Shown here: positions 3,322 through 5,216 of the stretch, piece after piece | Numbering within the stretch: position 1 is the first letter of the stretch | Layout: each line of letters opens with the position of its first letter | NCBI GenBank assembly: GCA_963826535.1 | Contig: CAWGXL010000011.1 | Coordinates: forward strand, 809-64,808 | DNA: 64,000 bases | Source: an uncultured bacterium | Lineage (GTDB): Bacteria; Patescibacteriota; Microgenomatia; Levybacterales; UBA12049 | Direction: 5' to 3' | The notes under the pieces: generated by a model | The model's database searches: none | The model's input: only the letters and a program-made list of their open reading frames with translations | What the model was told of the DNA's origin: nothing | Made by a program: the position numbers and the translations under genes

Positions 3322-4927
3322 TTTTTTGAGAATTTGATCCTGGTTCAGGATGAACGCTGGCGGCGTGCCTTAAGCATGCAAGTCGAACGGTTGAGTCGCA
3401 AGACAAGACAGTGGCAGACGGGTGAGTAACGCGTAGGAATCTACCCCTAGGTATAGGATAGCCCCGCGAAAGCGGGGGTAATACTTTATAGTCCCGCAAG
3501 GGTAAAGGACTTAACGGTCCGCCAAGGGAGGAGCCTGCGTCCTATCAGCTAGTTGGTGAGGTAATGGCTCACCAAGGCTATGACGGGTAGCTGGACTGAG
3601 AGGTTGATCAGCCACAACTGCACTGAGACACGGGCAGTACACCTACGGGTGGCAGCAACTAGGAATATTGCGCAATGGACGAAAGTCTGACGCAGCGACG
3701 CCGCGTGGAGGAAGAAGGCCTTCGGGTTGTAAACTCCTTTTGCCAAGCCGTTCACAGCTTGGAGAATAAGCCTCTACTAACTACGTGCCAGAAGTCTCGG
3801 TAATACGTAGGAGGCAAGCGTTATCCGGATTTATTGGGCGTAAAGTGTGCGTAGGCGGTTTGGAAAGTCTCGGTTTAAATGCTACGGCTTAACCGTAGTC
3901 TTGGTCGGGATACTGCCAGACTTGAGGATTGGCAGGGATGCTGGAACAGCCGGTGTAGCGGTGAAATGCGTTGATATCGGCTGGAACACCAAGGGCGAAG
4001 GCAGGCATCTAGACTTTTCCTGACGCTGAGGCACGAAAGCTAGGGTAGCGAAACAGATTAGAGACCTGTGTAGTCCTAGCCGTAAACGATGTCCGTTAGC
4101 TCTCACCCGCTAAGAATATAAGACTAATTTTCAATTTGAAATTTGAAATTTTCAATGAATTATAAATGATTTAATTTTTAAACATTTTTAATTTTGATAT
4201 TCATTAAAAATTAATAATTAAAAATTTTAAATTATATTTTATGCTTTTAGCGGGTGGGGGCGTAAGCTAACGCGTTAAGCGGACCGCCTGGGGAGTACGA
4301 CCGCAAGGTTAAAACTCAAAGGAATTGACGGGGACCCGCACAACCAGTGGAGCGTGTGGTTTAATTCGAGACGAAACGAAAAACCTCACCAGGGTTTGAA
4401 ATGCTAGCGTTCTATTCCTTAAGAAACGTAGGAAATCCGTAAGGATGGTAGCACAGGTGCTGCATGGCTGTCGTCAGCTCGTGCCGTGAGGTGTTCCCTT
4501 AAGTGGGGAAACGAGCGCAACCCCCGTCTAATGTTAAATATTCATTGAGACGGCCCCGATTTTATCGGGGAGGAAGGAGGGGTAGACGTCAAGTCAGCAC
4601 GGCCCTTATACCCTGGGCTACACACACCCTACAATGGCGAAGAACAATGGGCTGCAAGCTGGCAACTGCAAGCGAATCTCTGAAATTTCGCCTCAGTTCA
4701 GATTGGGGGCTGCAACTCGCCCCCATGAAGTCGGAATTGGTAGTAATCGCGGATCAGCAGGCCGCGGTGAATACGTTCTCGGGTCTTGTACACACCGCCC
4801 GTCAAGGCAGCAAAGTCGGGAGTGGATGAAGCGGCCAGCTTAGCTGGCTTCGAGTCCAAGCTTGGCGATGAAGCTTAAGTCGTAACAAGGTATCCCTAGC
4901 CGAAGCTGGGGATGGATCACCTCCTTT
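3322..4927 (+). rRNA. rrs: 16S ribosomal RNA with an internal AT-rich insertion.
   Basis: 5-prime end GAGAATTTGATCCTGGTTCAG. Conserved GTGCCAGAAGTCTCGGTAATAC, GCATGGCTGTCGTCAGCTCGTG and GTACACACCGCCCGTCA. 3-prime end GGATCACCTCCTTT. Confidence 0.95.
4115..4243 (+). other. ~129 nt, almost purely A/T insertion inside the 16S gene, between CCGTAAACGATG and GCTAACGCGTTAAG (E. coli ~840 region). It is closed by the stem CACCCGCTAAG / CTTTTAGCGGGTG.
   Basis: Alignment to the E. coli 16S shows extra sequence at this position. The insert contains short palindromes (TTCAATTTGAAATTTGAAATTTTCAATGAA). It carries no ORF. Confidence 0.7.
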
Positions 4928-5159
4928 CTTTTTTTTCTGCTAAGTCCCGTACCATCCGGTACAGGATTACGCAAATGTTAAAAGGAAAGGGGAAGACAGG
5001 AAACTTGTTTAGATTCCGACGTTACGTCGGAAGGTAAACAGGGGGAATGTATACACCAAGCGGAGTGAATAGCGCTTGTTCTTATCCGTTATACTGAGGA
5101 TAAGAGAATTCTATTCTCGCCTTCCTACCACATCTAGATTGTCAAGCACAGCTTGATTT

Positions 5160-5216
5160 AACCCCGCTCACCCAGCTCAGCTGGGTTCAAGTTAGCTCAG
5201 CTTACTCAGCGGGGTT
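5160..5216 (+). terminator. Compound GC-rich hairpin followed by a T-rich tract, downstream of the 16S gene. Probable processing stem or terminator.
   Basis: CCCCGCTCA...CCCAGCTCAGCTGGG...TCAGCGGGG followed by TTGTTTAAAGTTT. No 23S gene or tRNA follows; galU comes next. Confidence 0.4.

Follow-up and report, generated by a model that had tools for sequence, protein, structure and literature searches.

A palindromic hairpin element in helix 26 of a Levybacteria 16S rRNA gene: a dispersed family and a candidate intervening sequence

We analyzed a 64,000-nucleotide (nt) stretch of DNA from an uncultured bacterium of the Levybacterales (assembly GCA_963826535.1, contig CAWGXL010000011.1, positions 809 to 64,808 of the forward strand; hereafter the window), focusing on a short A/U-rich insert at the tip of helix 26 (h26) of its 16S ribosomal RNA (rRNA) gene. 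The results revealed that the insert belongs to a family of palindromic hairpins that lack an open reading frame (ORF), occupy rRNA helix tips and spacers, and are dispersed and rapidly exchanged. By analogy with known bacterial systems, we favor, with modest confidence, the reading that this dispersed element behaves as an intervening sequence (IVS) and is probably excised from the transcript by RNase III-type cleavage. The element looks more like a selfish insertion than a working part of the ribosome. An earlier note on this DNA had named two possible fates, a retained expansion segment or an IVS removed by RNase III-type processing, and this is the correct pair of candidates.

The helix 26 insert and its homologues

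The full-length bacterial 16S rRNA gene was located at 3322-4927 on the plus strand (Rfam RF00177, 1348.9 bits, model positions 1-1533); the earlier note had recognized the gene correctly and had run it on to 5216, which is the end of a downstream hairpin. A restricted cmscan search, in which both h26 strands (CUCUCACCCGCUA and GCGGGUGGGGG) were aligned, placed 137 nt (4112-4248) where the model has 3 h26 loop nucleotides. Alignment to the annotated E. coli rrs put the insertion site in the h26 loop at E. coli ~841-845, in agreement with the earlier placement at the ~840 helix. Measured against insert-free relatives, the hairpin element comprises 143 nt (4109-4251, plus strand) and stands in place of a GNRA-type tetraloop. 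Both cmscan and the tetraloop of the relatives thus indicate that the extra sequence replaces the terminal loop of a conserved helix, as in classical IVS. The native terminal stem of h26 is retained: its 5' strand at 4099-4108 (+), identified by cmscan, folding and insert-free relatives, pairs with its 3' strand at 4252-4261 (+), identified by cmscan and folding, and both insert junctions restore a perfect h26 stem in the fold. The enclosing stem CACCCGCTAAG/CTTTTAGCGGGTG reported earlier was recovered in the sequence as well as in the fold.

The insert has a G+C content of 10%, compared with 53% for the remaining 16S gene and 38.5% for the window. The description of it as almost pure A/T was accurate, while that of a pure A/T insertion was not, as 14 of its 137 nt are G or C and the longest unbroken A/T run is 40 nt. 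No ORF of at least 20 amino acids overlapped 4112-4248, and thus no homing-endonuclease ORF of the LAGLIDADG or GIY-YIG type was present. No group I or group II intron core was detected with covariance models at the gathering threshold, nor at E <= 10 on 4080-4280, and no Rfam family matched the insert beyond noise. These results uphold the earlier judgment that a homing-endonuclease intron is unlikely. A degenerate group I or II self-splicing intron that has no homing-endonuclease ORF would fit the frequent occurrence of both intron groups, with or without ORFs, in 16S genes from candidate phyla radiation (CPR) bacteria, as well as the insertions of ~440-1050 nt at other 16S positions in related loci. 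However, at 137 nt and 90% A/U the insert is too small to hold an intron core, intron families gave no match even at E <= 10, and the insert forms a single hairpin on a loop tip rather than at a conserved functional site typical of homing, so that we regard an intron as highly improbable.

Related loci were gathered by the 515-region signature GTGCCAGAAGTCTCGGTAATAC, which the window carries at 3788-3809, and comprised 104 genome loci and at least 120 metagenome loci (L numbers denote individual loci). Named records with this signature were overwhelmingly Candidatus Levybacteria/Levyibacteriota. The closest 16S relatives of the window were L066, L133 and L188, at ~95% identity. Along its entire length, the window insert shared 78% identity with the h26 insert of L005, and it was also clearly related to the inserts of L025 and L157, three loci whose 16S genes are only ~87% identical to that of the window.

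These homologues bear directly on whether an A/T block was misjoined into the 16S gene during assembly. The exact window sequence was absent from the other assemblies searched, and repeats can mislead assemblers. However, homologous inserts were found at the exact h26 position in independent assemblies (L005 at 78%, as well as L025 and L157), other h26 inserts were identical in two or three independent assemblies (L066 = L133 = L188; L157 = L204; L125 = L221), and the stem is perfectly restored at both junctions; a chimera is accordingly scarcely credible. The insert folded together with its stem at z = -7.3. The A/U part alone (4115-4244) gave -14.9 kcal/mol and z = -0.35, no better than shuffled sequences; therefore, it is the homologous copies in independent assemblies that establish the insert as real.

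Homologous copies were also found at unrelated sites, as in dispersed repeats, namely at h6, h10, h26 and h40 of 16S, in 23S and in intergenic spacers across genomes. The window h26 element was 86.7% identical over 128 nt (E = 7e-39) to an element at the h40 tip of L133, a metagenome contig (Ga0180012_1001135) whose h26 holds another, different insert and whose h6 holds a third. In alignment A3, the core common to the window element, the L133 h40 element (86.7%) and the L005 h26 element (78%) spans 4116-4243 (+), and the window h40 is an empty site (CCCCGAUUUUAUCGGGG). Similar cross-site pairs were L133 h40 and L005 h26 (84% over 140 nt), L035 h26 and L197 h40 (83% over 123 nt), L024 h10 and L069 h6 (74% over 126 nt), and L069 h6 and L069 h26 (74% over 103 nt). 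Distinct short inserts numbered 13 at h6, 6 at h10, 26 at h26 and 4 at h40, with a few at other tips; most of them fold as single hairpins, and 18 genes contained two or three.

Outside 16S, BLAST searches with the inserts identified copies in the 5' domain of the L011 23S gene, where the palindromic termini match those of h6 copies, in L149 and L070, and in the window itself. The latter is a second palindromic hairpin element of 136 nt at 32706-32841, which fills the entire spacer between the S12 gene rpsL (32842-33273, minus strand) and the S7 gene rpsG (32232-32705, minus strand). It folds as a hairpin, was 77.5% identical over 138 nt to the h10 element of L024 (alignment A2), and is homologous to elements in 16S h6, h10 and h26 and in 23S of other Levybacteria. 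The earlier note had described the insert as an extension of its helix; it does sit at the h26 tip, and it is not specific to that helix, being a single member of a palindromic hairpin cassette family.

The h26 region was defined as the stretch between TAAACGATG and GCTAACGC, and 151 loci yielded 123 distinct sequences. Among these, 81 were of normal length (31-38 nt), 16 measured 60-77 nt and 26 measured 85-198 nt, with 174 nt in the window; none fell between 39 and 59 nt. The added length was therefore ~30 nt in 16 of 123 and 50-165 nt in 26 of 123 regions, and the gap indicates that the h26 extension is a discrete module rather than a gradually growing helix. For most extended forms, the minimum free energy (MFE) structure was a single long hairpin prolonging h26, and with BLAST-defined boundaries this held for 22 of the 26 distinct insert segments.

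The sporadic presence among close relatives that characterizes IVS was evident, with the 81 normal regions free of any insert, and extended and normal forms were interspersed on a neighbor-joining tree built from the 560 nt upstream of h26. Over these 560 nt, L035, L010 and L064 share 99.5-99.8% identity, yet their h26 regions measure 166, 62 and 95 nt; similarly, L079, L086 and L039 share 97.4-98.1% identity upstream of h26, with h26 regions of 149, 69 and 35 nt. In the first trio, even the basal pairs differ in a compensated manner (AAUC..GAUU versus AACC..GGUU). Judging from these sequences, the whole cassette, including its basal helix, is exchanged between near-identical 16S genes.

The element as a whole is an imperfect palindrome, and its arms contain degenerate tandem repeats of 7-9 nt (e.g. 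AGAACUA, CAAAUACUA and CGAAAUC) and nested palindromes. Such repeats, together with the extreme composition, would be expected if h26 had grown locally in each lineage by slippage and palindrome extension, the likeness between copies being low-complexity convergence. However, h26/h40 identities of 87% over 128 nt and 83% over 123 nt cannot be convergence, the length distribution is discontinuous with none between 38 and 60 nt, and the cassette was swapped together with its base among genes 99.5-99.8% identical upstream of h26. Local growth appears very unlikely and, on the sequence comparisons, is already contradicted by the cross-site homology.

Several side observations concern the same family. 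Three short hairpin inserts within one 16S gene were seen in L133 (4024-5770; h6, h26 and h40) and also in L069, L024 and L117. An mRNA for S12 and S7 would include the element at 32706-32841 when transcribed. A further 115-nt palindrome (TTGTCATTCCCC...GGGAATGACAA) lies at 55760-55872 in the window, immediately beyond an S-subunit-like gene of type I restriction-modification (54418-55758), and its GUCAUUCC..GGAAUGAC motif also occurs inside the h26 inserts of L079, L156 and L180. The window h40 hairpin CCCCGAUUUUAUCGGGG (4553-4569) is nearly identical to CCCCGAUUUAAUCGGGG, which recurs in the 16S leaders and trailers of L080 and L155, and in L010 a hairpin of the CCCCGAUUUAAUCGGGG type also caps the short h26 extension. 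When the basal motif was sought outside 16S by regular expression, most matches were due to chance and formed no hairpins; BLAST with the insert sequences proved more informative.

Basal helix, distal arms and the likely fate of the element

To evaluate pairing at the base of the element, we aligned the basal 33 + 33 nt of 39 distinct extended h26 forms (alignment A1) and counted pairs for a continuous helix. Paired cells made up 86.6% of the alignment, compared with 68.4% in shuffles, and double-sided changes occurred in 21 of 26 pairs. The covariation score was 0.53, compared with 0.22 in shuffles (none of 500 reached 0.53) and 0.08-0.16 in slid controls. An A-U pair (37 of 39), a neighboring G.U wobble (29 of 39), an often-unpaired position and an AUAA/UUGU block were near-fixed. 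In the window, the 5' half of the basal helix (UAAG-AA-UAUAAGA, 4111-4123, plus strand) pairs with the 3' half (UUUUAUG-C-UUUUA, 4237-4249, plus strand), both located from A1 and the pair counts, and the pairing includes the conserved A-U and G.U pairs and an A4116/C4244 mismatch. The fold and the covariation across the 39 sequences show the insert ends pairing into a stem that prolongs the host helix, as in IVS, and the insert ends and native h26 stem together make a continuous covarying helix of ~25 bp. The covariation in these sequences indicates a genuine RNA helix under selection at the base of the element.

The distal ~115 nt form a weak A/U palindrome. An initial reading of RNA-level selection on the whole hairpin, based on better folding of sense than antisense in 19 of 19 cases, was withdrawn after a retest restricted to the distal parts of 24 long inserts, in which sense was better in only 14 of 24 (p = 0.11); the 19/19 advantage arose because the native h26 stem and the basal helix carry the signal. 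In this part, the three closest homologues showed few compensatory changes. The distal region behaves as a DNA-level palindrome and showed no RNA-specific signal.

In the mechanism that we propose, a palindromic hairpin element of ~100-150 bp, carrying no ORF and dispersed in Candidatus Levybacteria, would have taken the place of the h26 terminal loop. Its basal helix would serve as a substrate for a double-strand RNase, most likely RNase III, the enzyme class expected to cut the leader/trailer stem of this gene. The element would then be removed and the ends left unligated, as with classical bacterial IVS, giving a 16S rRNA in two pieces of ~790 and 680 nt that would be held together by the h26 stem and the tertiary structure of the ribosome. 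The family may spread, or be swapped as a cassette, through insertion or recombination, and would persist only where it is tolerated, at helix tips exposed to solvent and in spacers between genes. The most comprehensive CPR survey (PMC11270868, Tsurumaki et al. 2024) suspects that short rRNA gene insertions with neither an ORF nor intron character are RNase III intervening sequences, IVS have been characterized as parasites of sporadic distribution that RNase III cuts out with no ligation (PMC4990558), and CPR insertions are absent from transcripts according to Brown et al. 2015, as cited in a passage of PMC9297842.

Several considerations favor excision. The insert shares with classical IVS the replacement of a loop, paired ends, low G+C content, sporadic distribution, an apparently selfish nature and an RNase III-type stem. 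A portable processing site would be expected to look like this conserved basal helix, which accompanies the element from one helix to another. Furthermore, a 130-nt barely structured A/U tract is unlikely as a permanent part of the ribosome.

Retention as an expansion segment is a serious competitor that we consider distinctly less probable than excision. The insert would then prolong h26 as a long, flexible arm on the platform's solvent side, either neutral or with a role near the mRNA exit and the helix formed by the Shine-Dalgarno (SD) and anti-SD sequences. Consistent with this reading, selection acts on the basal helix at the RNA level, the occupied tips, h26 among them, are sites in variable regions, and the copies in the window, L005 and L133 are 78-87% identical, including the apical blocks AAUGNUUUAAUUUUUAAACAUU and GAUAUUCAUUAAAA, which could mean sequence constraint. 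In addition, h26 is reported to contact the SD helix (PMC9297842), and the anti-SD sequence CACCUCCUU is intact at the 16S 3' end of the window gene. However, the stable, site-specific presence in a lineage that marks expansion segments was not observed, as presence, absence and length flip among 16S genes 97.4-99.8% identical upstream of h26. A site-specific ribosomal function is also disfavored by the presence of the same element at h40 and of its relatives at h6 and h10, within 23S and within an mRNA spacer, and the distal 130 nt are 90% A/U and fold like shuffles with no sense-strand bias. A/U-rich, barely structured RNA would, moreover, be an easy nuclease target given the preferences of RNase E and RNase Y, which also weighs against retention. 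Taken together, the occurrence of the same elements at several helices and outside rRNA, along with their turnover, tips the balance toward a selfish, probably excised element.

Several points weigh against excision and mobility. The case for excision is drawn from analogy with classical IVS, and bacteria show fragmentation of 16S rRNA far less often than of 23S rRNA. The tips of h6, h10, h26 and h40 all belong to classic variable regions, which would be expected to tolerate a retained extension as well, and the conserved basal motif could serve protein binding or the folding of a retained helix. A motif scan of the 64 kb and of 1.45 Mb of related loci found no RNase III gene; the scan covers a small fraction of each genome and is uninformative. 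When filled and empty sites at h26 and h40 were compared, the loop had been replaced and no target-site duplication was clearly evident. No transposase turned up in a search limited to 10 ORFs; 'mobile' is therefore deduced from the cross-site homology and cassette turnover. Finally, the h26 element and the rpsL-rpsG spacer element of the window are only weakly similar (z = 2.2), and their sequences place them in different subfamilies that appear to be joined mainly via intermediates.

Two spurious ORFs internal to the 16S gene were used for exact-protein look-ups, which gave no match in transcript-containing assemblies. Metagenome contigs ending near h26 (L198, L180 and L162) were considered as possible transcript fragments and rejected, as L198 is a chimera and L180 and L162 are truncated inside the element. 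In L198 (1-1532), the 5' half of a Levybacteria 16S, reaching just past a normal h26, is joined to a foreign G+C-rich 23S fragment.

If RNA data confirm excision of the insert, the family would offer a tangible mark, in sequence and structure, of rRNA fragmentation in CPR bacteria, would explain part of the length heterogeneity of their rRNA genes, and would make a ~160-nt transcript a tractable substrate for studying CPR RNase III specificity. In L133-type genes with three inserts, the mature 16S rRNA would be in four pieces if all were excised. A broader proposal, which we advance tentatively and rate well below excision of the window insert, is that cassettes shuttle between 16S h6, h10, h26 and h40, 23S domain I and mRNA spacers, with the basal helix acting as a portable double-strand RNase site that renders each copy self-excising as RNA wherever it lands. 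If true, this would represent a non-intron route by which selfish DNA can reside inside a single-copy essential rRNA gene, and it would imply multiply fragmented 16S rRNA in some lineages, with up to three elements per gene.

The 16S transcription unit and other features

No Rfam family other than 16S, including 23S and 5S, scored above threshold in the 64 kb, and ARAGORN detected no tRNA genes in the window. The 16S gene thus stands alone, as the earlier note had stated: neither the 3.3 kb upstream of it nor the 59 kb downstream holds a 23S, 5S or tRNA gene. The single Rfam match in the window corresponds to the unlinked rRNA arrangement. A 23S gene was near the 16S gene in only 1 of 18 relatives with downstream room, at a distance of 5.6 kb. 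Patescibacteria are among the clades with exclusively unlinked rRNA genes (bioRxiv 10.1101/705046, Brewer et al.), and the unlinked 16S is confirmed, ordinary and already known for CPR/Patescibacteria.

The strongest flanking feature is a leader/trailer processing stem that brackets the entire 16S gene. Its 5' arm (3203-3226, plus strand, ..AAUCAAGAUGUGGUAGGAA) is 24 nt long and 96% complementary to the 3' arm (5122-5145, plus strand, UUCCUACCACAUCUAGAUUGUCAA), and its core GUGGUAGGAA/UUCCUACCAC is conserved in relatives across the clade. In other bacteria, the pre-16S leader/trailer stem is a classical RNase III substrate. The two GC hairpins previously described as flanking the gene both exist and are minor next to this stem, which is the functional flank of the 16S gene. 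One is a small G+C hairpin in the leader (3249-3265, plus strand, CCCCGCTCAGCGGGG), and the other lies beyond the trailer (5160-5216, plus strand) and likely ends the 16S transcription unit, its putative terminator role to be read with the fact that a strong T-run is absent. The 5160-5216 hairpin is the CCCCGC-TCA-GCGGGG hairpin of 3249-3265 with ~38 nt added in the loop, the addition consisting of two AGCTCAGCT repeats with TCA on either side; it represents a second case of sequence gained in a hairpin loop.

Upstream, a consensus scan identified a promoter-like TTGACA-16-TATAAT at 3086-3113 (+), a 12/12 match to the sigma-70 consensus ~210 nt upstream of 16S. It is followed by a G+C hairpin with a T-run at 3158-3183 (+), terminator-like or boxB-like, for which the leaders of relatives have an equivalent hairpin and U-run, and by the box GCACTTTGACAA at 3198-3209 (+), which overlaps the 5' arm of the processing stem. 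We take this box to be boxA-like from its resemblance to the E. coli rrn boxA GCTCTTTAACAA. The sequences GCACUUUAACAA / GCUCUUUAACAA are present in the leaders of relatives, and the leader order there is identical, namely a hairpin with a U-run, a boxA-like box and AAUCAAGAUGUGGUAGGAA. The terminator-like hairpin at 3158-3183 stands between the promoter-like site and the rRNA. From its sequence, the 16S gene resembles a self-contained transcription unit, and the insert is predicted to be co-transcribed within a monocistronic pre-16S RNA. On the upstream side of the 16S gene are genes for HU and for a UvrD_C/PD-(D/E)XK protein; downstream, the galU gene noted earlier at 5323 proved to be a GalU-like nucleotidyl transferase gene at 5323-6219 (+; PF00483, NTP_transferase, E = 1e-24).

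The 515-region signature is common to at least 220 Levybacteria-type loci and gave no matches in viral contigs. By our reckoning, GTGCCAGAAGTCTCGGTAATAC differs from the universal 515F primer site in three places, one of which is a compensated pair. Standard amplicon surveys would under-detect the clade, given the 515 region GTGCCAGAAGTCTCGGTAA and a V5 region 140 nt longer than usual. Searches with an insert-free 16S query showed that many Levybacteria 16S genes carry extra insertions of 440-1050 nt at three recurrent sites, query positions ~1031, 1335 and 1426, none of which is present in the window gene; they are probably CPR introns or homing-endonuclease insertions. Dozens of GTDB representative metagenome-assembled genomes (third-party annotation records among L001-L104) are titled 'uncultured Gammaproteobacteria bacterium' and contain Levybacteria-type 16S, indicating either mislabeled records or contaminated bins. 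In the window, a class I methyltransferase gene follows rpsG instead of fusA (31169-32705), so that the usual rpsL-rpsG-fusA order of the str operon is broken.

Comparison with known systems

Bacterial rRNA IVS are known from 23S helices 9, 25 and 45 (Salmonella, Campylobacter, Leptospira and Coxiella) and, rarely, from 16S (Helicobacter canis, Campylobacter and Caedibacter); to our knowledge, 16S h26 is not a classical IVS site. Like these IVS, the Levybacteria element replaces the loop of a helix tip, has paired ends and a G+C content below that of the rRNA, is sporadic in close relatives, and lies in a gene with an RNase III-type leader/trailer stem; IVS, too, are regarded as selfish or horizontally transferred. 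It differs from them in that its excision is deduced by comparison and in that one family occupies several helices as well as non-rRNA spacers, a distribution that we did not find described for classical IVS.

Dispersed palindromes that land in genes or transcripts are also known, namely the Rickettsia palindromic elements and the Correia elements of Neisseria, the latter being processed by RNase III in mRNAs. We presume the present element to be similar to these, as imperfect palindromes of ~100-150 bp that have no ORF, occur in several copies per genome and are transcribed as hairpins within host RNAs. Compared by description only, the Levybacteria element differs in its low apparent copy number outside rRNA and in that neither a transposase nor terminal inverted repeats with target-site duplication could be identified. 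The eukaryotic expansion segment ES7S, which also extends h26, and engineered insertions that rRNA helix tips tolerate are likewise extensions of surface helices. However, eukaryotic expansion segments are retained, lineage-stable and site-specific, whereas the Levybacteria element is patchy, interchangeable and found at multiple sites.

The closest resemblance is to the short 'uncharacterized' CPR insertions (Brown et al. 2015; PMC11270868), which share the CPR host, a length below 200 bp, a position at the top of a stem-loop, and no ORF or intron signature. The accessible part of the PMC11270868 survey sorts insertions by site and length only, and contains no mention that we could find of sequence families, of copies at other helices or outside rRNA, or of a conserved basal motif. 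A limited search of the literature, which is not proof of absence, likewise yielded no description of families among the insertions, multi-helix copies, copies outside rRNA or a conserved basal motif. The 16S gene of the window, which has neither 23S nor 5S beside it, does not differ from the unlinked rRNA genes of Brewer et al. (bioRxiv 10.1101/705046). Both this gene arrangement and short ORF-less insertions in CPR are already known, and comparison over ~220 related loci indicates that the 'uncharacterized short insertions' are a family of homologous hairpins rather than independent helix expansions.

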